Under the pieces are notes generated by a model, which ran no database searches, was not told the DNA's origin, and saw nothing but the letters and a program-made list of their open reading frames with translations. Position numbers and translations under genes: made by a program. A stretch of 64,000 nucleotides of DNA, from assembly GCF_054482525.1 (NCBI RefSeq), contig NZ_CM137006.1. One strand, given 5' to 3'. The stretch's first letter is position 1; each line of letters begins with the position of its first letter. Shown one piece after another: positions 24,006 through 45,900 of this stretch.

Positions 24006-24712
24006 CAAATGCGCCTATAAGGCTCTCTTACCAGCCGCGCCCTAACAGGCGCACACGATCTGACATTTGCATCCAACTTCGTTACTTACGGCCCGTAAAC
24101 GGGCTGCCCGGATAGGGAATCGATAACTGCTCTCCCATTTTATCCTCTTCAAGCTGGTGCTTTATGTAATCCTGTATCTTCGCCGTGTTCTTACCCACCG
24201 TATCGACGTAGTACCCTCTGCACCAGAACTCCCTGTTCCTGTATTTGAATTTCAAATCACCAAACTGCTCGTAAAGCATCAGACTGCTTTTCCCTTTCAG
24301 ATATCCCATAAAGCCGGATACGCTCATTTTGGGCGGGATCTCCACAAGCATATGGATATGATCTGCACAGCATTCAGCTTCCAGAATCCGTACACTTTTC
24401 CACTCACACAGCTTTCTCAAAATACTGCCTATTGCTCTACGCTTCTCTCTGTAGAACACCTGTCTTCGGTATTTTGGCGCAAAAACTATGTGATATTTAC
24501 AGTTCCATCGGGTGTGCGCTAAGCTCTTTTCGTTCCCCATTGGGACCCCCTTTTGATTTCTTGTTTGACACTTGCAGTTGCCAGACCGCAAGGTGTTTTA
24601 ACAAATCAAAAGGGGTTTTAATAACTGGCTTAAAGCTGAAAGCTTTCCGGAACCCCCAGCCTAGCTGGGGGTTTTCTGTGCACAATAACTGCGCCTGGCA
24701 TCCCGCCAGGCG
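24006..24712 (-). mobile_element. IS200-like element (IS200/IS605 family), boundaries approximate
   Basis: Contains a Y1-transposase gene, a perfect palindrome AACCCCCAGCCTAGCTGGGGGTT about 120 bp upstream of tnpA and a 13-bp inverted repeat sequestering the tnpA start region, as in IS200. Confidence 0.6.
24082..24540 (-). CDS. tnpA: IS200 transposase TnpA (HUH Y1 transposase)
   Basis: 152 aa MGNEKSLAHTRWNCKYHIVFAPKYRRQVFY...HIHMLVEIPPK... with HuH motif and catalytic Tyr-containing C-terminus. Confidence 0.9.
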   Translation of the reverse strand: MGNEKSLAHTRWNCKYHIVFAPKYRRQVFYREKRRAIGSILRKLCEWKSVRILEAECCADHIHMLVEIPPKMSVSGFMGYLKGKSSLMLYEQFGDLKFKYRNREFWCRGYYVDTVGKNTAKIQDYIKHQLEEDKMGEQLSIPYPGSPFTGRK

Positions 24713-24718
24713 CAGGTT

Positions 24719-25624
24719 TTACATCTCCTGCGGTACAACCGATTTCGCCAGCAACCATTCACGAAATTGCTGCAAGTGCGGTGAGTCAGACTTCTCTTCC
24801 TGCCACGTCATAATAAAACGATTACCGGTACGAATAGGCACATCACAGGGAATCACCATATCGCCACTATCCAAATCATGTTGAATAGCGAACCGTGGTA
24901 ACAGCGCCACGCCGAGATTAGAGCGCACGGCGGCAATCAGCATTGAAAGCAAATCGAAACGTGGTCCGTTGTTGACCAGCGGACTGCTAACGCCAGATAA
25001 GGCAAACCACTCTTCCCAGCCAGTAATACGGGTACTTTGATGCAGAAGTGGTAACTCTGTAAGCAGTTCTGCCACTGACAGTTTTTGATCGGACATTGCA
25101 AGCAAACTGCCGCTGCATACCGGCAAAATCTCCTCTTCAAAGAGATATTCTACTTCCGCCCAGGGCGCGCAAAAATTTTCGCGCATAATGACAGCATCGT
25201 ACTCCCGATTAAGAAAATCGCCGTTATTAGCTAAAGAGTGAATATTAACAATAATATCGGGATGTAACTTTGTGAATTCATGTAAATTTGGGATTAACCA
25301 GTGGGTACTAAACGTAGGATTCACGGCAAGTTCAATAACCTTAACTGTAGGTTGCCAGGTCATAATGGTATTGGTATCGCGTTCCAGCTTATTTAATGTT
25401 TCTTTTACTATCCCCAGGTAATACTTCCCTGCATCATTAAGAAAAATACGTTTTTTAGAGTGTGAAAATAACGGAGTATGTAAAAATTCCTCCAGCGCAC
25501 TCACTTGTCTGAATACTGCACTTTGGGTTAACGCTAACTCCTCTGCCGCTCTGGTATAACTTTCATGACGTGCGACGACCTCAAAAGTCACCAGCAGTTC
25601 CGTTTTAGGTATTTTTCCTCGCAT
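24719..25624 (-). CDS. LysR-family transcriptional regulator
   Basis: 301 aa; N-terminal HTH (TFEVVARHESYTRAAEELALTQSAVFRQVSALEE) and LysR substrate-binding domain. Confidence 0.85.
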   Translation of the reverse strand: MRGKIPKTELLVTFEVVARHESYTRAAEELALTQSAVFRQVSALEEFLHTPLFSHSKKRIFLNDAGKYYLGIVKETLNKLERDTNTIMTWQPTVKVIELAVNPTFSTHWLIPNLHEFTKLHPDIIVNIHSLANNGDFLNREYDAVIMRENFCAPWAEVEYLFEEEILPVCSGSLLAMSDQKLSVAELLTELPLLHQSTRITGWEEWFALSGVSSPLVNNGPRFDLLSMLIAAVRSNLGVALLPRFAIQHDLDSGDMVIPCDVPIRTGNRFIMTWQEEKSDSPHLQQFREWLLAKSVVPQEM

Positions 25625-26190
25625 AATGCCGTCCCTTAAAAATAGTTTAAACCATCAAAAATACATTACTTATTACGAAGTAATGGTAACCAAAGCAGCA
25701 ATAAATAATTTATAAGAATCATGATTGACATTTATAACCCAGTAAGCCTGGCGTGACAAATATCTTAATCAGATAATAATAATCCGAAAAGCACAGCGCC
25801 TTTCGAATTATCCGGAATCACATTAAGTGAAAATTATTAAATTGATATCATTTATCATATCTGTGGATATTATGATAAACAATCAACAAAGATTTTATTT
25901 TTGATTTATAGCATATCCCTCTAAGAATTTTTGCGATGCTGCAATATCCGGGGTAAAGACCCGATCCTGGCTGACAAATGGCACGACTTGACGATAAGCG
26001 GTGAACATCGCTTTTGTTGATTTACTTAACGCTACGGTCAAACGCTGGGAAGCCAGTGCATCAGGTAACGATTCGAAATTCGCCGTCGTTCTTATTCGTG
26101 GCTTGCGGTCGGTTGCGGCAATCCACAGTGGCTGTGGTCATGCAGTCAAGCCAGCGGTCAGATTTCGACCGTGGTTAACATTTAAGGCAT

Positions 26191-26289
26191 AAAAAAGGCC
26201 ATCATACGATGGCCAACCATGTCGAAACCGACAGCCCTTCGCCATTCCTGTAGAGGGAAGCGGCGAGGGCTATTTCTTATTACAGATAT
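26191..26289 (-). ncRNA. sdhX: sucD 3'UTR-derived sRNA SdhX (RybD) with intrinsic terminator
   Basis: About 100 nt between sucD stop and hairpin GGCCATCGTATGATGGCC + U6 on the minus strand; position matches the known SdhX locus. Sequence identity not checked. Confidence 0.5.
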
Positions 26290-27159
26290 TTATTTCAGAA
26301 CAGTTTTCAGTGCTTCACCGATATCCGCCAGGCTGCGAACGGTTTTCACGCCTGCGGCTTCCAGAGCAGCGAATTTCTCATCCGCAGTCCCTTTCCCACC
26401 GGCAATGATGGCACCCGCGTGGCCCATACGTTTGCCTTTCGGCGCAGTCACACCAGCGATGTAACCCACAACAGGCTTGGTAACGTGCTCTTTGATGTAC
26501 GCAGCCGCTTCTTCTTCAGCGCTACCGCCGATCTCACCGATCATCACGATCGCTTCGGTCTGCGGATCTTTTTCGAACATTTCGAGGATGTCGATAAAGT
26601 TAGAGCCAGGGATCGGGTCGCCGCCGATACCAACACAGGTCGACTGACCGAAACCGTAATCCGTGGTCTGTTTAACCGCTTCATAGGTCAGTGTACCGGA
26701 ACGGGAAACGATACCCACTTTACCCGGTTTGTGAATGTGACCAGGCTGGATACCGATTTTGCATTCACCCGGAGTGATAACGCCTGGGCAGTTCGGGCCG
26801 ATCATGCGAACGCCCGCTTCATCCAGTTTCACCTTCACGGTCAGCATATCCAGCGTCGGGATGCCTTCAGTGATGGTGATAATCAGTTTGATGCCTGCAT
26901 CAATAGCTTCCAGAATGGAGTCTTTGCAGAACGGTGCTGGTACGTAGATAACAGAAGCGGTAGCGCCAGTAGCAGCAACAGCTTCACGCACGGTGTTGAA
27001 CACCGGCAGGCCGAGGTGGGTGGTGCCGCCTTTACCTGGGGTTACGCCGCCAACCATTTTAGTGCCGTATGCAATGGCCTGTTCTGAGTGGAAAGTCCCC
27101 TGGCTACCGGTAAAGCCCTGGCAGATAACCTTGGTGTTTTTATCAATTAAAATGGACAT
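26290..27159 (-). CDS. sucD: Succinyl-CoA synthetase alpha subunit
   Basis: 289 aa [45 protein letters not shown]... Confidence 0.95.
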
Positions 27160-28325
27160 TATTTCCCCTCCACTGCGGCAACAACCTGCTGAGCTGCATC
27201 CGTCAGACCTTTTGCTGCAATAATATTCAGGCCGCTGTCAGCCAGTTTCTTCGCGCCGAGTTCGGCGTTGTTACCTTCCAGACGTACCACGACCGGTACG
27301 TTAACACCCACTTCCGCTACCGCGCCGATGATACCGTCAGCGATCAGGTCGCAACGAACGATACCGCCGAAGATGTTAACCAGAACGGCTTTCACTTTGT
27401 CGTCAGAGAGGATGATTTTGAACGCTTCGGTTACACGTTCTTTGGTTGCGCCGCCGCCAACGTCAAGGAAGTTAGCTGGTTCGCCGCCGTGCAGTTTAAC
27501 GATGTCCATCGTACCCATCGCCAGACCTGCGCCGTTAACCATACAACCGATGTTACCGTCCAGCGCAACGTAGTTCAGTTCCCACTGTGCAGCCTGTGCT
27601 TCACGTGGATCTTCCTGCGACTGGTCACGCATTTCGCGCAGATCAGGCTGGCGGAACAGTGCGTTGCCATCAGCGCCCAGTTTGCCGTCGAGGCAAATCA
27701 GATCGCCCTGTTTGGTGATGACCAGTGGGTTGATTTCGATCAGCGCCAGGTCGCGCTCCAGGAAAATGGTCGCCAGGCCCATGAAGATTTTGGTGAACTG
27801 CTGAACCAGTTTACCTTCCAGACCCAGTTTGAACGCCAGCTCGCGTCCCTGATACGGCATCGGGCCAGTCAGCGGATCAAGCGCAACTTTATGGATCAGG
27901 TGCGGAGTTTCTTCCGCCACTTTTTCGATTTCCACGCCGCCTTCGGTGGAGGCCATAAAGACCACACGACGGGAACTACGGTCAACAACGGCACCGAGAT
28001 ACAGCTCTTTAGCGATATCGGTCGCTGCTTCAACCAGAATCTGGTTAACCGGTTGGCCATTGGCATCTGTTTGATACGTTACCAGACGCTTGCCCAGCCA
28101 GTTTTCTGCAAAAGCACGGATGTCTTCTTTGCTGTTTACCACTTTCACACCGCCCGCTTTACCGCGGCCACCAGCGTGAACCTGACATTTCACTACCCAC
28201 GGACCGGCACCGATTTTTGAAGCGGCTTCTTCTGCTTCGCGCGGAGTAGTACAGGCATAACCCACCGGTGCTGGTAAGCCATAGCGGGCAAAAAGTTGTT
28301 TTGCCTGATATTCATGTAAGTTCAT
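27159..28325 (-). CDS. sucC: Succinyl-CoA synthetase beta subunit
   Basis: 388 aa [39 protein letters not shown]...; 1-nt overlap with sucD. Confidence 0.95.
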
Positions 28326-28418
28326 GTGTTCTGTCCATCCTTCAGTAATCGTTATCTTTTAAACCGTAGACCGACACCCTATCCACGTCGGTCTACAGTG
28401 CAGGTGAAGCTTAAACTA

Positions 28419-29636
28419 CTACACGTCCAGCAGCAGACGAGTCGGATCTTCCAGCAACTCTTTGATCGTTACCAGGAAGCCCACGGATTCGCGACCATCG
28501 ATCAGACGGTGATCGTAGGACAGCGCCAGGTACATCATCGGCAGGATCTCAACCTGACCATTCACCGCCATCGGACGATCTTTGATAGCGTGCATACCCA
28601 GAATTGCGCTCTGCGGCGGGTTGATGATCGGCGTAGACATCAGGGAACCGAACACACCACCATTGGTGATGGTGAAGTTACCACCGGTCAGATCTTCAAC
28701 CGTCAGCTTGCCGTCACGGCCTTTAACTGCCAGCTCTTTGATTTTCTTCTCGATGTCTGCCATGCCTAGGGTATCGACATCACGCAGTACCGGCGTCACC
28801 AAGCCGCGCGGCGTAGAAACCGCCATGCTGACGTCGAAATAGTTGTGGTAAACCACATCATCGCCGTCGATAGAAGCATTCACTTCAGGGTAACGTTTCA
28901 GGGCTTCAACCACCGCTTTCACGTAGAAGGACATAAAGCCCAGACGGATGCCGTGGCGTTTTTCAAACGCTTCACCGTACTGCTTACGCAGATCCATAAT
29001 CGGCTTCATATTGACTTCGTTGAACGTGGTCAGCATGGCGGTGGAGTTTTTCGCTTCCAGCAGACGCTCTGCCACACGCTTACGCAGGCGAGTCATCGGG
29101 ACACGTTTTTCGCTACGTGCAGCCAGAGCCGGTTGCGCCGCCGGAGCAGCCGCTGCCGGAGCAGACTCTTTCGCCGGGGCTTTCGCCAGATGTTTTTCCA
29201 CATCTTCACGAGTCAGACGACCACCCACACCGGTGCCTTTAATGGCGCTGGCGTCGAGGTTGTGTTCAGCCAAGAGTCGGCGGATCGCCGGGCTTAACGC
29301 ATCGTTGTTTTGCTCTTCCAGAGACGCCTGCTGGCGTTGCGCCGGAGTGGACGCTTTCTCTTCAGATTTGGCGCTGGTTTCTTTACCCGCGCTGTTGCCT
29401 TCACGCAGGCGACCAAGGATCTGACGAGACGTTACCGTTGTACCTTCATCTTCCAGAACCGCATCCAGAATGCCGTCTGCTGATGCCGGTACTTCCAGTA
29501 CCACTTTGTCAGTTTCGATTTCTACCAGCACTTCATCACGTACGACTGCGTCGCCGGGTTTTTTATGCCAGGTTGCGACGGTGGCATCGGCTACGGATTC
29601 AGGCAGGTCAGGGACCAGAATATCTACGCTACTCAT
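28419..29636 (-). CDS. sucB: 2-Oxoglutarate dehydrogenase E2 (dihydrolipoyl succinyltransferase)
   Basis: 405 aa with lipoyl domain and catalytic acyltransferase domain. Confidence 0.95.
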
Positions 29637-29650
29637 TGTGTATCCTTTAT

Positions 29651-32452
29651 TTATTCGACGTTCAGCGCGTCATTAACCAGATCTTGTTGCTGTTTCTGGT
29701 GAACGGACATATACCCTACCGCCGGAGAGGCGGAGGCCGGGCGGCCTGCATAACGCAGAGAAGCCCCAAACGGAATCACTTCACGGAAATGATGCTGGCT
29801 GCAGTACCATGCGCCCTGGTTGAGCGGCTCTTCCTGGCACCAGACAAAATCCTTGACGTGAGCAAACTGCTGCAACACTTCCTGCATCGCTTTATGCGGG
29901 AACGGGTAGAGTTGCTCGATACGCACAATGGCGACATCGTGTTGATTGTTCTTACGACGTTGTTCCAGCAGGTCGTAATAAACCTTACCAGAACACATCA
30001 CTACACGCTTAACGCCCTTCGGATCAAGCTCGTCGATTTCACCGATGGCTGGCAGGAAGGTGCCGTTCGCCAGTTCTTCGAGGCTGGAAACCGCCAGCGG
30101 ATGACGCAGCAGGGATTTCGGCGACATCACGACCAGCGGACGACGCATCCCGCGCAGCGCCTGACGACGCAGCATGTGGTAAACCTGTGCCGGGGTAGAC
30201 GGTACGCACACCTGCATGTTTTGCTCAGCGCAAAGTTGCAGATAACGTTCCAGACGCGCGGAGGAGTGCTCCGGTCCCTGCCCTTCGTAACCGTGCGGCA
30301 GCAACATCACCAGACCACACATCCGGCCCCATTTCTGCTCGCCAGAGGAGATGAACTGGTCGATAACCACCTGAGCACCGTTAGCGAAGTCACCGAACTG
30401 TGCTTCCCAGATAGTCAGAGTGCGTGGTTCTGCGGTGGCATAACCGTATTCAAACGCCAGCACTGCTTCTTCAGACAGTACGGAGTCCCAGACACGGAAC
30501 GCGCCCTGACCGTTATGGATGTGCTGCAGCGGCGTGTAAGTGGAACCGTTAGACTGGTTGTGGATCACCGCGTGGCGGTGGAAGAAGGTACCGCGACCGG
30601 AGTCTTCACCCGACAGGCGAACCGGAATGCCTTCGTCAACCAGCGTGGCGTAAGCGAGGTTTTCCGCGCCGCCCCAGTCGAACAGTTTCTCACCAGCTGC
30701 CATCGCCTGGCGATCGCCATAAATCTTGGCAACGCGAGACTGCATTTCAACTGCTTCCGGCACCGTGCTGATGCGTTTAGCCAGTTCCTGCAGGCGCTTC
30801 ATCTCAACTTTGTTCGGGTACTCTTCGTCCCATTCGTGGTTGAGGTACGGCGACCAGGTGAAAGAGTGCATGTTCATCGGACGCCACTCTGTTACCACGC
30901 AATCGCCAGCATCCAGCGCATCGCGGTACAGGTTAACCATCTCAGTGGCATCTTCCAGCGTCGCGACTTTTTCCTGCTCCAGCTTGTCAGCGTAGATTTT
31001 GCGCGGCGTTGGATGTTTTTTGATTTTCTGATACATCAGCGGCTGGGTTGCGCTCGGCTCGTCGGCTTCGTTGTGGCCGTGACGGCGGTAGCACACCAGA
31101 TCGATGAAGACATCACGTTTAAAGGTGTTACGGAAATCGAGCGCCAGACGGGTCACAAAAGCAACGGCTTCCGGATCATCCGCGTTTACGTGGAAAATCG
31201 GTGCCTGAACCATCTTACCGATATCAGTACAGTACGGCGTAGAACGGGCATCCAGCGGATTAGAGGTGGTGAAGCCAACCTGGTTGTTGATAACGATACG
31301 TACCGTACCGCCAACTTCATAACCACGCGCTTTCGACATGTTCAGAGTTTCCTGAACCACGCCCTGCCCGGTCACTGCGGCGTCACCATGAATGGTGATT
31401 GGCAGCACTTTGTTGCTGCTCGGCTCATCAAGTCTGTCCAGACGGGCACGAACAGAACCGATAACTACCGGGCTGACAATCTCAAGGTGAGACGGGTTAA
31501 ACGCCAGCGCCAGGTGCACCAGGCCGCCATCGGTCTGGAAGTCAGACGAGAAGCCCATGTGGTATTTCACGTCGCCCGTGCCGAGGTGTTCTTTATGTTT
31601 ACCGGCAAACTCGTCGAACAAGTCTTGCGGTTTTTTACCCAGCACGTTCACCAGCACGTTCAGACGACCACGGTGCGCCATCCCGAGAACCACTTCGCGG
31701 GTGCCGCTGTTGCCAGCGTGGCGGATCATCTCTTTAAGCATCGGGATTAACGCGTCACCGCCTTCCAGCGAGAAGCGTTTTGCGCCAGGGAATTTTGCGC
31801 CGAGGTAACGTTCAAGGCCTTCAGCGGCGGTCAGTTCGCTTAAGAAGCGTTTTTTCTCTTCGCTATTGAAAGTCGCGCGACCAGACTCGATACGCTGTTG
31901 GATCCAGCGTTTTTCTTCGGTGCTGGTGATGTGCATATACTCGGCACCAATCGGGCCGCAGTAGGTTTGCTTGAGGGCTTCCAGCAGCTCGCCGAGTTTC
32001 ATGGTTTCTTTGCCGCTGGCAAATGAACCGACGTTGAAGGTCTCCTGGAAGTCTGCTTCGGTCAGATCGTGGAAAGACGGATCCAGATCGGCCACTTTAT
32101 CTTGCTGCCACAGTCCCAGCGGATCGAGATTCGCATGCTGGTGACCACGGAAGCGGTATGCGTTAATGAGCTGCAGGACTTTAACCTGCTTCACATTGGT
32201 GTCAGGGTCGGAGATCGTTGAAGAGTAACGTGAAGCGTCTTTCGCCAGGCGGCGGAAATATTCACGCGTTTGAGAGTGGAATTGATCCGGTTTGACTCCC
32301 GTACCAGGTAACTGCTGGAACGTCGAACGCCAGTTAGCGTCAACCGAGTCAGGATCGGTTAAGAAGTCTTCATAGAGCTGTTCTATCCAGCTCTGGTTTG
32401 CGCCAGAGAGGTAAGAAGAGTCCAACCAGGCTTTCAAAGCGCTGTTCTGCAT
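29651..32452 (-). CDS. sucA: 2-Oxoglutarate dehydrogenase E1 component
   Basis: 933 aa [38 protein letters not shown]... Confidence 0.95.
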
Positions 32453-32651
32453 CGTGATCCCTTAAGCATCTTTTTTATGCTTACTTCGCCGTGGATACTA
32501 CCACGCACAGTGATGTGCGTGCCGGGGTTCACTTGCGAGCTCTTGTCTACGTAGTGGCTCGCGAAGGAACCTTTAAAAACTGTCTTAGTGTCAGGGGCAG
32601 TTTTTAAAGATTTCCTGAATAGCCGGGGATTTCCCCGGCATCAACATTTAA

Positions 32652-33368
32652 TTACGCATTACGCTGCAACAACATCGACTTGATATGGCCGATGGCGCGC
32701 GTCGGGTTCAGCCCCTTCGGACATACACTGACGCAGTTCATGATGCTGTGACAGCGGAATACACTGAATGCATCGCTCAAACCGTCGAGGCGGCTGTCAG
32801 TCTCGGTATCACGGCTATCGATCAGGAAACGATATGCCGCTAACAAGCCTGCCGGGCCGATAAACTTATCGGGATTCCACCAGAAAGACGGACAAGAGGT
32901 TGAACAACATGCGCAGAGAATACATTCATACAGCCCGTCGAGTTTTTCGCGCTGCTCTGGCATCTGTAAATGCTCGCGAGCTGGCGGATTTTGTCCATTA
33001 TTCAACAGGTAAGGCTTAATTTTCTCATATTGCGCATAGAATTGTCCCATGTCTACCACCAAATCGCGGATCACCGGTAAACCTGGCAGCGGGCGAATCA
33101 CAATCTTCTTGCCCGGCTGGTTGAGTGCCGAAATCGGGGTAATACAGGCCAGACCATTCTTGCCGTTCATGTTCAGACCGTCGGAACCGCACACACCTTC
33201 ACGGCAGGAACGGCGGAACGACAGGCTGGGATCTTTCTCTTTCAGCTGGATAAGCGCATCCAGCAGCATCATGTCGCGACCTTCTTCCGCTTCCAGGGTG
33301 TAATCCTGCATACGCGGAGCATCATCAACATCCGGGTTATAGCGATAAATTGAAAACTCGAGTCTCAT
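32652..33368 (-). CDS. sdhB: Succinate dehydrogenase iron-sulfur subunit
   Basis: 238 aa MRLEFSIYRYNPDVDDAPRMQDYTLEA... with Cys clusters. Confidence 0.95.
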   Translation of the reverse strand: MRLEFSIYRYNPDVDDAPRMQDYTLEAEEGRDMMLLDALIQLKEKDPSLSFRRSCREGVCGSDGLNMNGKNGLACITPISALNQPGKKIVIRPLPGLPVIRDLVVDMGQFYAQYEKIKPYLLNNGQNPPAREHLQMPEQREKLDGLYECILCACCSTSCPSFWWNPDKFIGPAGLLAAYRFLIDSRDTETDSRLDGLSDAFSVFRCHSIMNCVSVCPKGLNPTRAIGHIKSMLLQRNA

Positions 33369-33383
33369 TTTCCTGTCTCCGCA

Positions 33384-35150
33384 TTAGTAAGTACGAATCT
33401 TCGGCGGGAATGCCGGGCGCAGTTTCGGTTCCATGTTGACGCTTCGGCGCGTCATGGATTCCGACTCTGGCAGATACAGGGAGTGGCACAGCCAGTTTTC
33501 ATCATCACGATCCGGGAAGTCGAAGCGGCTATGCGCGCCACGGCTTTCGGTACGGAAGTTGGCAGAAACAGCCGTTGCATACGCCGTTTCCATCAGGTTA
33601 TCAAGTTCCAGGCACTCAACGCGCTGGGTGTTGAACTCGCTGGAAGTGTCATCCAGACGGGCATTTTTCAGGCGCTCGCGGATAACTTTCAACTGCTCAA
33701 GACCTTTCGCCATCGCATCACCTTCACGGAAGACCGAGAAGTTATGCTGCATACATTCTTGCAGTGCTTTACGGATCGCCACCGGATCTTCACCGTTACG
33801 GTTGTTGTTCCAGCGGTTCAGGCGATCCAGAGACGCTTCTACATCAGACTCGCTGGCATCGCGCAGTGCGCCCTGCTCGGCGATAGACTCTTGCAGATGC
33901 AGACCCGCTGCGCGACCAAAGACCACCAGGTCCAGCAGCGAGTTGCCGCCAAGACGGTTAGCGCCGTGTACCGATACGCAGGCAATTTCACCTACCGCGA
34001 ACAGCCCCGGAACCACCACATCTTCGCCTTTCTCGTTCACCGTCAGCGCCTGACCGGTCACTTTGGTCGGAATACCGCCCATCATGTAGTGACAGGTTGG
34101 GATAACCGGAATCGGCTCTTTCACCGGATCGACGTGAGCGAAGGTACGGGAGAGTTCCAGGATACCCGGCAGACGGGATTCAAGAACTTCTTTACCCAGG
34201 TGGTCGAGTTTCAGTTTCGCATGTGGCCCCCACGGACCATCACAGCCGCGACCTTCACGGATTTCAATCATGATGGAACGCGCCACCACGTCACGGCCCG
34301 CCAGGTCTTTGGCGTTCGGCGCATAACGCTCCATAAAGCGTTCGCCATGTTTGTTCAGCAGATAACCGCCTTCACCACGGCAACCTTCGGTGACCAGGAC
34401 GCCCGCACCTGCAATACCGGTCGGGTGGAACTGCCACATTTCCATATCCTGCACCGGTACGCCTGCACGGATAGCCATGCCGACACCGTCGCCAGTGTTA
34501 ATGTGGGCGTTAGTGGTGGACTGATAAATACGCCCTGCCCCGCCAGTCGCCAGCACGGTAGCGCGGGCTTTGAAATAAACCACTTCACCAGTTTCGATGC
34601 ACAGTGCAGTACAACCCACCACCGCGCCATCCTGGTTTTTCACCAGATCCAGCGCATACCACTCGGAGAAAATAGTGGTGTGGTTTTTCAGGTTCTGCTG
34701 ATAAAGCGTGTGCAACAGTGCGTGACCGGTACGGTCAGCAGCCGCCGCAGTGCGTGCCGCCTGCTCGCCGCCGAAGTTTTTCGACTGACCGCCAAACGGA
34801 CGTTGATAGATACGACCATCATCAAGACGCGAGAACGGCAGGCCCATGTGTTCGAGTTCCAGAATCGCTTCCGGCCCGGTTTTACACATATATTCAATCG
34901 CGTCCTGGTCACCGATATAGTCCGACCCTTTTACGGTATCGTACATATGCCATTCCCAGTTATCTTCATGGGTATTACCCAGCGCAACGGTAATGCCGCC
35001 TTGCGCAGAAACGGTATGGGAACGGGTCGGGAAGACTTTAGAGAGCAGCGCACAGGTCTGACCGCTCTGGGAAATTTGCAGCGCCGCGCGCATACCTGCG
35101 CCACCGGCACCAATCACAACTGCATCAAATTCTCTGACTGGCAATTTCAT
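33384..35150 (-). CDS. sdhA: Succinate dehydrogenase flavoprotein subunit
   Basis: 588 aa from [25 protein letters not shown]... (start set 4 codons inside the ORF). Confidence 0.95.
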
Positions 35151-35497
35151 CACACACCCCACACCACAACGAATCCATAAATCACGTAAACCACCAGTGC
35201 AACGACAATCACCAGTTGCAGCATCAGGCGCAAGGCCAGCGGTTTAACGTAGTCGGTCAACACCTGCCACATGCCGATCCAGGCATGAATCAAGATAGAA
35301 AACAGCGCCAGCAGGGTGAACACTTTGGTGAACGCAGAGGCGAAGAAACCGATCCAGACTTCATATGTCAGCTCGCCACTGGTAGCGAAAAAACCGACCA
35401 TATAAATGATGTAGAGCGTCAGGACGATAGCGGTAGCGCGAACGAGGATGAAATCATGTACGCCATTGCGTCCTAATGCGGAGGCGTTGCTTACCAT
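35150..35497 (-). CDS. sdhD: Succinate dehydrogenase membrane anchor subunit
   Basis: 115 aa hydrophobic protein; overlaps sdhA start. Confidence 0.93.
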
Positions 35498-35880
35498 ACG
35501 AGGACTCCTGCGAGAAGTGAAAGCACGACAGTAATAACAAAGGAGATTTTGGCGGAGCGTTTACCCGCTTCGAATGTTTCTTCCAGATAGCCAAAATCCA
35601 TCATCATGTGGCGAATACCTACGACGACGTGATACGCCAGAGCGGTAAGGATGCCCCACATGATAAATTTGACGAAGAAGCTGCCCATAATCGCAGAAGC
35701 TTGCTCGAAACCTTCAGGGGAAGAGAGGCTGGTACCCAGAAGCCACAGCAGGATGCCCACTGCAACAAAGGTGATCATACCGGAAACGCGATGGAGAATG
35801 GACGCTATCGCCGTGACGGGGAACCGGATGGTCTGTAGGTCCAGATTAACAGGTCTTTGTTTTTTCACATTTCTTATCAT
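35491..35880 (-). CDS. sdhC: Succinate dehydrogenase cytochrome b556 subunit
   Basis: 129 aa from [34 protein letters not shown]... Confidence 0.93.
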
Positions 35881-36588
35881 GAATAACGCCCACATGCTGT
35901 TCTTATTATTCCCTGGGGACTACGGGCACAGAGGTTAACTTTCTGTTACCTGGAGACGTCGGGATTTCCTTCCTCCGGTCTGCTTGCGGGTCAGACAGCG
36001 TCCTTTCTATAACTGCGCGTCATGCAAAACACTGCTTCCAGATGCGAAAACGACACGTTACAACGCTGGGTGGCTCGGGATTGCAGGGTGTTCCGGAGAC
36101 CTGGCGGCAGTATAGGCCGTTCACAAAATCATTACAATTAACCTACATATAGTTTGTCGGGTTTTATCCTGAACAGTGATCCAGGTCACGATAACAACAT
36201 TTATTTAATTTTTAATCATCTAATTTGACAATCATTCAACAAAGTTGTTACAAACATTACCAGGAAAAGCATATAATGCGTAAAAGTTATGAAGTCGGTA
36301 TTTCACCTAAGATTAACTTATGTAACAGTGTGGAAGTATTGACCAATTCATTCGGGACAGTTATTAGTGGTAGACAAGTTTAATAATTCGGATTGCTAAG
36401 TACTTGATTCGCCATTTATTCGTCATCAATGGATCCTTTACCTGCAAGCGCCCAGAGCTCTGTACCCAGGTTTTCCCCTCTTTCGCAGAGCGGCGAGCCA
36501 AATAACAAACGGGTAAAGCCAGGTTGATGTGCGAAGGCAAATTTAAGTTCCGGCAGTCTTACGCAATAAGGCGCTAAGGAGACCTTAA

Positions 36589-37872
36589 ATGGCTGATACA
36601 AAAGCAAAACTCACCCTCAACGGGGATACAGCTGTTGAACTGGATGTGCTGAAAGGCACGCTGGGTCAAGATGTTATTGATATCCGTACTCTCGGTTCAA
36701 AAGGTGTATTCACCTTTGACCCAGGCTTCACTTCAACCGCATCCTGCGAATCTAAAATTACTTTTATTGATGGTGATGAAGGTATTTTGCTGCACCGCGG
36801 TTTCCCGATCGATCAGCTGGCGACCGATTCTAACTACCTGGAAGTTTGTTACATCCTGCTGAATGGTGAAAAACCGACTCAGGAACAGTATGACGAATTT
36901 AAAACTACGGTGACCCGTCATACCATGATCCACGAGCAGATTACCCGTCTGTTCCATGCTTTCCGTCGCGACTCGCATCCAATGGCAGTCATGTGTGGTA
37001 TTACCGGCGCGCTGGCGGCGTTCTATCACGACTCGCTGGATGTTAACAATCCTCGTCATCGTGAAATTGCCGCGTTCCGCCTGCTGTCGAAAATGCCGAC
37101 CATGGCCGCGATGTGTTACAAGTATTCCATTGGTCAGCCATTTGTTTACCCGCGCAACGATCTCTCCTATGCCGGTAACTTCCTGAATATGATGTTCTCC
37201 ACGCCGTGCGAACCGTATGAAGTTAATCCGATTCTGGAACGTGCTATGGACCGTATTTTGATCCTGCACGCTGACCATGAACAGAACGCCTCTACCTCCA
37301 CCGTGCGTACCGCTGGCTCTTCGGGGGCGAACCCGTTTGCCTGTATCGCAGCAGGTATTGCTTCACTGTGGGGACCTGCGCACGGTGGTGCTAACGAAGC
37401 GGCGCTGAAAATGCTGGAAGAAATCAGCTCCGTTAAACACATTCCGGAATTTGTTCGTCGTGCGAAAGATAAAAATGATTCTTTCCGCCTGATGGGCTTC
37501 GGGCACCGCGTGTACAAAAATTACGACCCGCGCGCCACCGTAATGCGTGAAACCTGCCATGAAGTGCTGAAAGAGCTGGGTACCAAAGATGACCTGCTGG
37601 AAGTGGCTATGGAGCTGGAAAACATCGCGCTGAACGACCCGTACTTTATCGAGAAGAAACTCTACCCGAACGTCGATTTCTACTCTGGTATCATCCTGAA
37701 AGCGATGGGTATTCCGTCTTCTATGTTCACCGTGATCTTCGCTATGGCACGTACCGTTGGCTGGATCGCCCACTGGAGCGAAATGCACAGTGACGGTATG
37801 AAGATTGCCCGTCCGCGTCAACTGTATACAGGATATGAAAAACGCGACTTTAAAAGCGATATCAAGCGTTAA
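36589..37872 (+). CDS. gltA: Citrate synthase
   Basis: 427 aa [47 protein letters not shown]...; divergent from sdhC. Confidence 0.95.
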
Positions 37873-37900
37873 TGGTTGATTGCTAAGCCGTTTACTTTCC

Positions 37901-37932
37901 GGACCCGCCTTTAATAGAGCGGGTTCTTTTTT
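37901..37932 (+). terminator. Rho-independent terminator of gltA
   Basis: GGACCCGC...GCGGGTTC hairpin followed by T6. Confidence 0.6.
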
Positions 37933-38261
37933 ATATGGCTGAACATAATAAATTGTAAAAATTAAACCAGATGCAAATACCCATTAATAAGGTGAAAAAA
38001 TGTGACAAGTCACATACTGAGCAGAATGATAAGTTTATTTTTATACTTTCCTGCCGGTAGCATTGTTAACCCAATGAAAATTATGCATATCCATCCCACC
38101 CCATCTTTCATCTCATTAAACAATAAATTTATACACTCAATTATTCCATTCTTTATATAACAAGATTTTTAATATTGTTAAATAAAACCAAATACATTCA
38201 ACTGTCAGTTAATATATTCTTGCCTCGCAACACTCTATCTCATTATTTAAAGGACTCAGCT

Positions 38262-45165: not shown

Positions 45166-45900
45166 TTATGCTGCGACAACAATCCCCTTTTCGGCAAATG
45201 TAGAGCGTAGTCGGCGGGCGAATGCCAGTGCGTGTTCTCCATCGCCATGCAGGCAGACCGTTTGCGCCGTGACCGTTGCCCATTCGCCGGTGATACTTTT
45301 GACTCTGCCGTGTTGCACCATCTCCAACGTTTGCGCCAGCGCCTGTTCTTCGTTTTCAATCAACGCGCCTGGCTGGCTTCGCGGCACCAGCGAGCCGTCA
45401 GCCTGATAACCGCGATCGGCAAACACTTCCTCGCGCGTTATCAGACCATATCGCTTGCCTGCACGAATCAGCTCGCTTCCCGCCAGCCCGACGAGAATCA
45501 ATGACGGATCGCAAGCGTATACCGCTCTGGCGATGGCGTCTGCCAGTTGTGCCTCTTTCGCCGCCTGGTTGTATAACATGCCGTGCGGTTTGACATGACG
45601 CATTACGCCCCCTTGTGCACGGGTAATCGCTGCCAGCGCGCCAATTTGATACAGCGTCTGGGCGTAAACGGTTTCTGGCGGCAGCTGCATGGCACTGCGA
45701 CCAAAATTTTCCCGGTCGGGAAAACTCGGGTGAGCGCCAATCGCGACACCATTTTTTATTGCTTCACGCACGCAAACCTGCATGGTTTGCGCATCGCCTG
45801 CATGAAATCCACAAGCAATATTGGCAGAGGAAACCAGCGTTAATAGCTCTGCGTCGCTGGCGCAGCCTTCGCCCAGATCGGCGTTCAGGTCAATTTTCAT
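45166..45900 (-). CDS. pxpA: 5-Oxoprolinase subunit A (LamB/YcsF family)
   Basis: 244 aa [36 protein letters not shown]... Confidence 0.9.

Follow-up and report, generated by a model that had tools for sequence, protein, structure and literature searches.

The sdhB-sucA spacer

The sequence considered here is the 199-nt spacer between sdhB and sucA, which occupies exactly positions 32453-32651 of the window (the whole 64,000-nt stretch of DNA that was analysed) and is read as minus-strand RNA. It lies between the sdhB open reading frame (33368..32652, minus strand) and that of sucA (32452..29651, minus strand), with sdhCDA upstream of sdhB and sucBC downstream of sucA among the open reading frames of the window. 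The 399-nt stretch around the spacer is 100% identical to E. coli PCN033, and BLAST finds a match to it in 5425 of the 5426 complete E. coli genomes, with sdhB and sucA annotated beneath the match; by these identities the window is E. coli DNA and the spacer is a transcribed part of the sdhCDAB-sucABCD operon. The locus is already known as a regulatory region, hairpin-rich and well studied. It has been established in K-12 that one 10-kb transcript gives rise to two TCA-cycle enzyme complexes, whose ratio is set by the spacer, and that the spacer is where nitrogen status enters carbon flux, by way of GlnZ and Nac. The features found in the spacer and at its edges are as follows, in the order in which they would be transcribed.

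32652..32654, minus strand: sdhB stop codon TAA, the upstream edge of the spacer (ORF 32652..33368, annotated as sdhB in the matching E. coli genomes).
32622..32639, minus strand: proximal GC hairpin, GCCGGGG, loop AAAU, CCCCGGC; a perfect inverted repeat, present in the minimum free energy (MFE) fold.
32566..32615, minus strand: long AU-rich hairpin, GGAAAUCUUUAAAAACUG, loop of about 15 nt, CAGUUUUUAAAGGUUCC; from the MFE fold and the repeat scan.
32535..32562, minus strand: hairpin B, GCGAGC, 16-nt loop, GCUCGC; from the MFE fold and the repeat scan.
32526..32533, minus strand: conserved single-stranded AGUGAACC, invariant in 11 Enterobacteriaceae.
32502..32521, minus strand: hairpin C, CACGCACA, loop UCAC, UGUGCGUG; a perfect 8-bp stem.
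32486..32495, minus strand: GlnZ target site UCCACGGCGA, complementary to the seed UUGCCGUGGAAA of GlnZ and located between hairpins C and D.
32463..32483, minus strand: hairpin D, UAAGCAU, loop AAAAAAG, AUGCUUA; purine/A-rich, just upstream of the ribosome-binding site (RBS).
32450..32463, minus strand: Shine-Dalgarno sequence AAGGGA (32458-32463) and sucA start codon AUG (32450-32452), at the start of the ORF.

Stem-loops of the spacer

The initial annotation had singled out three palindromes here, and a repeat scan recovers all of them at the same coordinates. Two are exactly as described: CACGCACA/TGTGCGTG at 32502-32509 and 32514-32521, with a 4-nt loop, and GCCGGGGA/TCCCCGGC at 32622-32629 and 32632-32639, just after the sdhB stop, which as RNA forms a 7-bp stem with a 4-nt loop and begins 13 nt past the stop codon. 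The pair TAAAAACTG...CAGTTTTTA is also present, but it is an ordinary hairpin with about 15 nt between its arms and not the "long-range repeat" for which it had been taken; the arms are 15 nt long and 93% complementary in the repeat scan, and the RNA fold extends them to about 17-18 bp. Two further hairpins, GCGAGC/GCTCGC (32557-32562 and 32535-32540) and TAAGCAT/ATGCTTA (32463-32469 and 32477-32483), had been missed, and the GlnZ/Hfq target site, which is the best-documented function of the spacer, had also been overlooked.

The spacer holds three perfect stems of at least 8 bp in 199 nt. In 2000 shuffles that preserve dinucleotides the mean is 0.03, and not one (0/2000) reached three; the spacer is also the only 199-nt tile with three such stems among 639 overlapping tiles of the window. 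Tiles of this length with two perfect stems of at least 8 bp are found at 901-1200, 24601-24800, 45601-45900 and 62101-62300. The minus-strand RNA folds with -70.8 kcal/mol, vs. -47.4 +/- 4.4 in shuffles (z = -5.27), and its MFE fold is a series of five consecutive stem-loops.

Conservation in the Enterobacterales

A scan of species-representative genomes for SdhB yielded 80 loci, 27 of them from Enterobacterales and 53 from an outgroup comprising Vibrio, Aliivibrio, Aeromonas, Alteromonas, Pseudoalteromonas, Shewanella, Colwellia and similar gammaproteobacteria; sdhB is followed by sucA in all of the 80 loci that could be checked. Apart from the exceptions that are named individually, the 27 Enterobacterales spacers (27/27) share one plan, with a GC hairpin, the AU hairpin, more hairpins, the CCACGGCGAA block, an AAGCNN hairpin and AAGGGAUCA just before the AUG. 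The CCACGGCGAA block is found in 24 of the 27 loci and AAGGG[A/C]UCA in all 27, while the AU hairpin ends in an invariant AAAGGUUCC, the exception being Acerihabitans, with a spacer of only 68 nt. None of the conserved leader blocks appears in the 53 outgroup loci. A covariance model built from 11 Enterobacteriaceae matches directly upstream of sucA in every one of the 27 Enterobacterales loci (E 3e-35 to 0.06) and in 0 of the 53 outgroup loci; a cmscan of positions 26000-38000 on both strands gave no Rfam family at E <= 1, the sucA, sucA-II and sucC motifs included.

The initial annotation was to be given up if its hairpins proved not to be conserved in related genomes. They are kept across the Enterobacterales, with compensatory changes, and stem pairing that is kept while the sequence changes is the signature of an RNA structure rather than of a sequence recognized by a protein.

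The segment following sdhB and its alleles

The 165 nt adjoining sucA, which include the AU hairpin, hairpins B, C and D, the GlnZ site and the RBS, are identical to the corresponding sequence of K-12 MG1655 and HB101. The comparison with K-12 proposed in the initial annotation shows a difference on the sdhB side: the GC hairpin after the sdhB stop is absent from K-12, HB101 and O157:H7, all of which have three REP elements directly after the stop. The 35-nt segment with the GCCGGGG hairpin here replaces REP67, the three-element cluster of K-12, and the spacer measures 199 nt vs. 300 nt in K-12 (NC_000913.3 758406-758705).

The proximal GC hairpin is strain-variable. Among 5426 complete E. coli genomes, 1760 carry the hairpin allele after the sdhB stop, in single copy and always at the sdhB-sucA locus, and 3369 have REP sequence directly after the stop. 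An exact match to the allele of the window is found in 122 of the 1760; the other 1638 have one extra C in the loop, with the stem intact. The 43-nt hairpin segment has a median of 1 copy per genome, always at the 3' end of sdhB, and so is not a dispersed multi-copy family. The possibility that the hairpin is itself a REP was rejected, since it is single-copy and without a match to the K-12 REP sequences. Roughly a third of the E. coli sequenced, this strain among them, are thus without the K-12 REP cluster and have a simple hairpin instead, so that the K-12 maps of termination and RNase III cleavage may not transfer directly to them. Longer REP arrays are also found; the spacer then measures 349 or 361 nt in E. 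coli and 550 nt in E. albertii. A limited literature search turned up no published description of this REP/hairpin polymorphism at sdhB-sucA, which is no proof that there is none.

The insertion sequence IS1397 inserts specifically into the palindromic units of REP/BIME elements. In E. coli SK0832 (NZ_AP046542.1; locus L004, 1-1308, upstream of sucA), which has a REP-bearing allele, the transposase gene of this IS3-family element is found inside the sdhB-sucA spacer; taken together, the two observations fit the REP-bearing allele, unlike the hairpin allele, as an insertion target. The hairpin allele, for its part, contains an 18-codon open reading frame, MLMPGKSPAIQEIFKNCP (32591-32647, minus strand), which starts 4 nt past the sdhB stop and crosses the GC hairpin into the AU hairpin. 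We judged it to be probably a chance occurrence rather than a gene; it is found in the hairpin allele only, without a visible ribosome-binding site.

In every sampled Enterobacterales species a GC hairpin is present after the sdhB stop and before the AU hairpin, though its sequence differs between genera, taking the form of a simple hairpin, a CCCTCTCCC/GGGAGAGGG-type palindrome or REPs. That the position of the hairpin is kept through the turnover of unrelated elements argues that the hairpin itself is functional. The hairpins of Citrobacter sp. FP75 and of Mangrovibacter resemble the one in the window (GTTG..CCGGGGAA..CCCCGGC..CAGG), a likeness that makes the hairpin allele probably the ancestral one and the K-12 REP cluster derived.

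The AU-rich hairpin and RNase III processing

There is no long duplex in this allele other than the AU hairpin, whose sequence is the same in K-12, where it would lie at 758544-758593 if the helix has the bounds seen in the window. The hairpin consists of 17-18 pairs with one bulge, where the usual guide for an RNase III substrate is about two helical turns (about 20 bp), and it is a probable RNase III substrate and entry site. Of the 25 Enterobacterales species checked for its base helix, 24 have kept it. In an alignment of 21 Enterobacterales species, pairing is seen in 89% of cells, and 11 of 18 pairs have changed on both sides, pair counts that are biased upward because complementarity served to choose the 5' arms; controls with a shifted register give 27-59% pairing. 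The apical loop tolerates insertions of 35-141 nt with the base helix kept, which suggests that it is the base helix that matters for function.

Several genera have insertions inside the spacer (at loci L011 ~2014-2148, L012 ~2022-2162, L024 ~1556-1740 and L008 ~2084-2196). Those of Enterobacter, Phytobacter, Pluralibacter and Serratia sit in this apical loop. Citrobacter sp. FP75 has its insertion between the GlnZ site and hairpin D, a position that would explain the location of the Salmonella GlnZ site at -166. The inserts of Citrobacter, Serratia and Phytobacter are related to one another and presumably resemble the ERIC repeat.

Processing of the read-through transcript by RNase III is reported by Cunningham & Guest 1998, as cited in PMC9731577 and PMC5371410, and PMC6393394 and PMC4161252 describe RNase III/RNase E processing in the spacer. 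The region 5' of sucA is one of two RNase III sites called "well-known" in PMC5371410, with a peak in the rnc/wild-type RNA-seq coverage at K-12 position 758515. That position falls in the third K-12 REP, a sequence missing from this strain, so that the pattern of processing in K-12 may in part not hold here. PMC9731577 places three RNase III sites upstream of the GlnZ site and describes both targets as having "relatively long stem-loop structures"; in the same work SucA, not SucB, changes in an rnc mutant.

The sucA leader and the GlnZ site

When 11 Enterobacteriaceae are aligned without bias by MAFFT, 95% of the cells of hairpins B, C and D are paired and 10 of 22 pairs are compensatory, vs. 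21-51% pairing in shifted registers. Within the same 11 species hairpin B has 100% of its cells paired, and hairpin C has compensatory changes in 7 of 9 pairs in that alignment. Hairpin D takes the forms AAGCAC/GUGCUU, AAGCUU/AAGCUU and AAGCC/GGCUU in other genera.

An alternative form of hairpin B, GCGGAC/GUCCGC, with the pairing kept and with a longer loop in hairpin C, is found in 1140 of the 5426 E. coli genomes and is common to E. albertii; its middle pairs change from A-U and G-C to G-C and A-U, one of the changes being one-sided and one two-sided. This second E. coli leader allele (for example in E. coli S6, locus L003 ~520-600), in which the loop of hairpin C is 12 nt, matches E. albertii (L065) and not K-12, which suggests either that the polymorphism is old or that there has been recombination between species.

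The loose form of the AGUGAACC motif, [GA]TGAAC[CT], is not specific as a pattern on its own: 22 of the 27 Enterobacterales loci have it, but so do most of the 53 in the outgroup. The AGUGAACC segment pairs with GGGAUCAC, in the Shine-Dalgarno region, in the single-sequence MFE fold. On the minus strand both this block (32526-32533) and a second invariant single-stranded block, GGUUCCUU (32563-32570), are complementary to the RBS region AAGGGAUCAC (32454-32463).

The GlnZ target site UCCACGGCGA forms 10 pairs with UUGCCGUGGAAA, one of them G-U, upstream of the sucA RBS. The seed UUGCCGUGGAAA and its validated pairing with the sucA 5' UTR are described in PMC9731577 and bioRxiv 10.1101/2022.04.01.486790, where compensatory mutants show that GlnZ represses sucA by direct pairing; the repression of SucA depends on RNase III (bioRxiv 10.1101/2022.04.01.486790) and, according to the literature, also needs a purine-rich 15-nt element adjoining the RBS. 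Either CCACGGCG or YUACGGCG is present in 24 of the 27 Enterobacterales loci and in 0 of the 53 outgroup loci. The CCACGGCG GlnZ block is absent from Pantoea stewartii, Rosenbergiella and Pantoea sp. 1.19 (L025, L032, L037), all of which keep the AU hairpin, the AAGCAU-type hairpin and the RBS; Erwinia psidii has the block. From these sequences, the Pantoea/Rosenbergiella lineage (Erwiniaceae) may have lost GlnZ control of sucA or shifted it elsewhere.

Promoter, terminator and DNA-binding proteins

The internal suc promoter of this region, Psuc, was reportedly found by Cunningham & Guest in 1998 to be weak, repressed by IHF and partly sigma-38 dependent, with sucABCD expressed mainly from the sdh promoter. 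A consensus scan of positions 32300-32800 gave no sigma-70-like promoter with at least 9 of 12 matches (-35/-10, 16-18 nt spacing) and no intrinsic-terminator-like site, so that neither Psuc nor a terminator can be placed from the sequence. An extended -10-like TG-n-TAGTAT, noted by eye at 32495-32503 on the minus strand, is a candidate, and the IHF pattern WATCARNNNNTTR has no exact match in the spacer.

Published work on K-12 supports the suggestion of the initial annotation that the region combines a partial terminator or processing site with an internal suc promoter, in that termination, a promoter and RNase III processing have all been described there. Internal termination as well as a further promoter between sdhB and sucA are given in the introduction of PMC6393394 and in Fig. 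3 of PMC4161252, and in the latter Conway et al. present the locus as an example of an internal terminator with partial read-through and a secondary promoter. Transcription of sucABCD mainly from the sdh promoter, with Psuc weak, is stated in PMC6393394; the repression of Psuc by IHF is noted in PMC10197701, and Nac is described in the literature as binding the sucA promoter. The "pSucAB" of PMC10197701 was considered as a sucA promoter and rejected, as it is an expression plasmid. The experiments cited here were all carried out in K-12, O157/EPEC or Salmonella, none of them in a strain with the hairpin allele. A "partial terminator" role is one that we can only infer for the GC hairpin, since it is absent from K-12, where all of the mapping was done.

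Interpretation

We read the palindromes as RNA stem-loops of the transcript that reads through from the sdhC promoter, with roles in the separation of sdh from suc and in the control of sucA, and give this reading a probability of roughly 0.85. The GC hairpin would mark and protect the 3' end of the sdhCDAB mRNA, by blocking 3' exonucleases or by weakly attenuating transcription, and would thereby do the job that three REP elements (REP67) do in K-12. The 18-bp AU hairpin would be the long duplex at which RNase III parts the sdh and suc halves of the 10-kb transcript. In the leader of about 115 nt, the covarying hairpins B and C would frame the single-stranded UCCACGGCGA, where GlnZ, with Hfq, would pair under nitrogen limitation and repress translation of sucA; GlnZ/Hfq repression at sucA has been shown in K-12 and Salmonella (PMC9731577, bioRxiv 10.1101/2022.04.01.486790), and the site is identical here. 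The A-rich hairpin D and AAGGGA would complete the leader as the translation initiation region, and the weak internal promoter Psuc, reported to be IHF-repressed and Nac-bound, would also lie within the DNA of the spacer.

Several other readings have to be weighed against this one. The GC hairpin could be a true Rho-independent terminator that ends most sdhCDAB transcripts, leaving sucABCD mainly on its own promoter in this allele. Its 7-bp stem is made up of G-C pairs only, as the GC-rich stem-loop of an intrinsic terminator should be, and reaches about -17 kcal/mol with its flanks only 13 nt past the stop codon; in Rosenbergiella and Pantoea the corresponding hairpins have 4-5 U in the 10 nt that follow them, and the K-12 "internal terminator" with partial read-through (described in PMC4161252) would fit as well. 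In E. coli, however, the tail of the hairpin is UAUUCAGG, without a U-tract, which makes an intrinsic terminator unlikely. The terminator scan is empty, the regulation by GlnZ and RNase III acts on the read-through leader, and the main supply of sucABCD transcript is from the sdh promoter, Psuc being weak, as PMC6393394 has it. The palindromes could also act mainly as DNA, bound by IHF, Nac or other regulators of the internal promoter, given that the repression of Psuc by IHF and the binding of Nac at the sucA promoter show proteins at work on the DNA of the spacer, and that the region of the AU hairpin is rich in AT, which is often true of IHF sites. This we think quite improbable, for the stems have stayed paired while 10 of 22 pairs (B, C and D) and 11 of 18 (AU) underwent compensatory changes, G-U pairs are tolerated on the transcribed strand, and there is no exact IHF consensus in the spacer. 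As for the palindromes being chance features of intergenic sequence, short palindromes do occur at random in general, but with 0 of 2000 shuffles reaching three stems, z = -5.27 and conservation with covariation, this idea is refuted and its likelihood is close to nil.

The leader could, finally, be an unrecognized cis-regulatory RNA, either a sensor of a metabolite or protein or a switch in which GGUUCCU or GUGAACCC sequesters the RBS AAGGGAUCAC. Orphan "sucA" RNA motifs do exist in other proteobacteria, and the combination of covarying stems with invariant single-stranded blocks, kept order-wide and without an Rfam match, is what such an RNA might look like; a GGUUCCU:AGGGAUC helix is suggested by RNAalifold, folds of single sequences join GUGAACCC to GGGAUCAC, and the change of SucA but not SucB in the rnc mutant (PMC9731577) would be in keeping with control at this point. 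The columns of the candidate anti-Shine-Dalgarno are invariant, however, and so provide no covariation for the pairing, the A-to-C variants of the RBS in Erwinia and Xenorhabdus are uncompensated, and the predicted occupancy of the RBS, 0.36-0.63, is inconsistent across 5' ends. The known functions (RNase III, GlnZ/Hfq and the RBS) already explain much of the conservation, and we hold such a sensor or switch to be very doubtful. A further proposal, in which the leader of about 165 nt would be a processing- or ligand-dependent translational switch for 2-oxoglutarate dehydrogenase, with AAAGGUUCCUU and AGUGAACC pairing with the RBS, seems to us distinctly unlikely. Independently of it, the GC hairpin may be ancestral and the REP cluster its derived functional equivalent, in which case the locus would be a natural allelic series for the effects of REPs on operon polarity.

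Comparison with known systems

Returning to the reading of the spacer as a series of RNA stem-loops in the read-through transcript, what is added here to the picture from K-12 is the order-wide covariation of the sucA leader, the REP-free allele and the kept position of the hairpin, which we regard as useful annotations rather than surprises. The Rfam sucA, sucA-II and sucC motifs, orphan cis-regulatory candidates from Burkholderiales and Pseudomonas, are alike in being structured RNA upstream of a gene for 2-oxoglutarate dehydrogenase or succinyl-CoA synthetase, but the structure of the Enterobacterales sucA leader differs from theirs. The hairpins processed by RNase III at pnp, rpsO-pnp and the aceE 5' UTR resemble the AU hairpin as long stem-loops in an untranslated segment of a metabolic operon, and sucA is listed beside pnp as a classic RNase III target in PMC5371410; in contrast to them, the AU hairpin here, a putative site of RNase III cleavage, is AU-rich and only about 17-18 bp.

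The closest relative is the sdhB-sucA region of K-12 itself, the same locus and base-for-base identical over 165 nt, which has REP67 where this strain has one GC hairpin. The REP/BIME elements that act as 3'-end stabilizers or attenuators are like the hairpin of the window in their position after a stop codon inside an operon and in their form as a GC-rich stem-loop. The window's hairpin differs in being single-copy and not obviously a target for IS1397, yet the roles of the two may be interchangeable.
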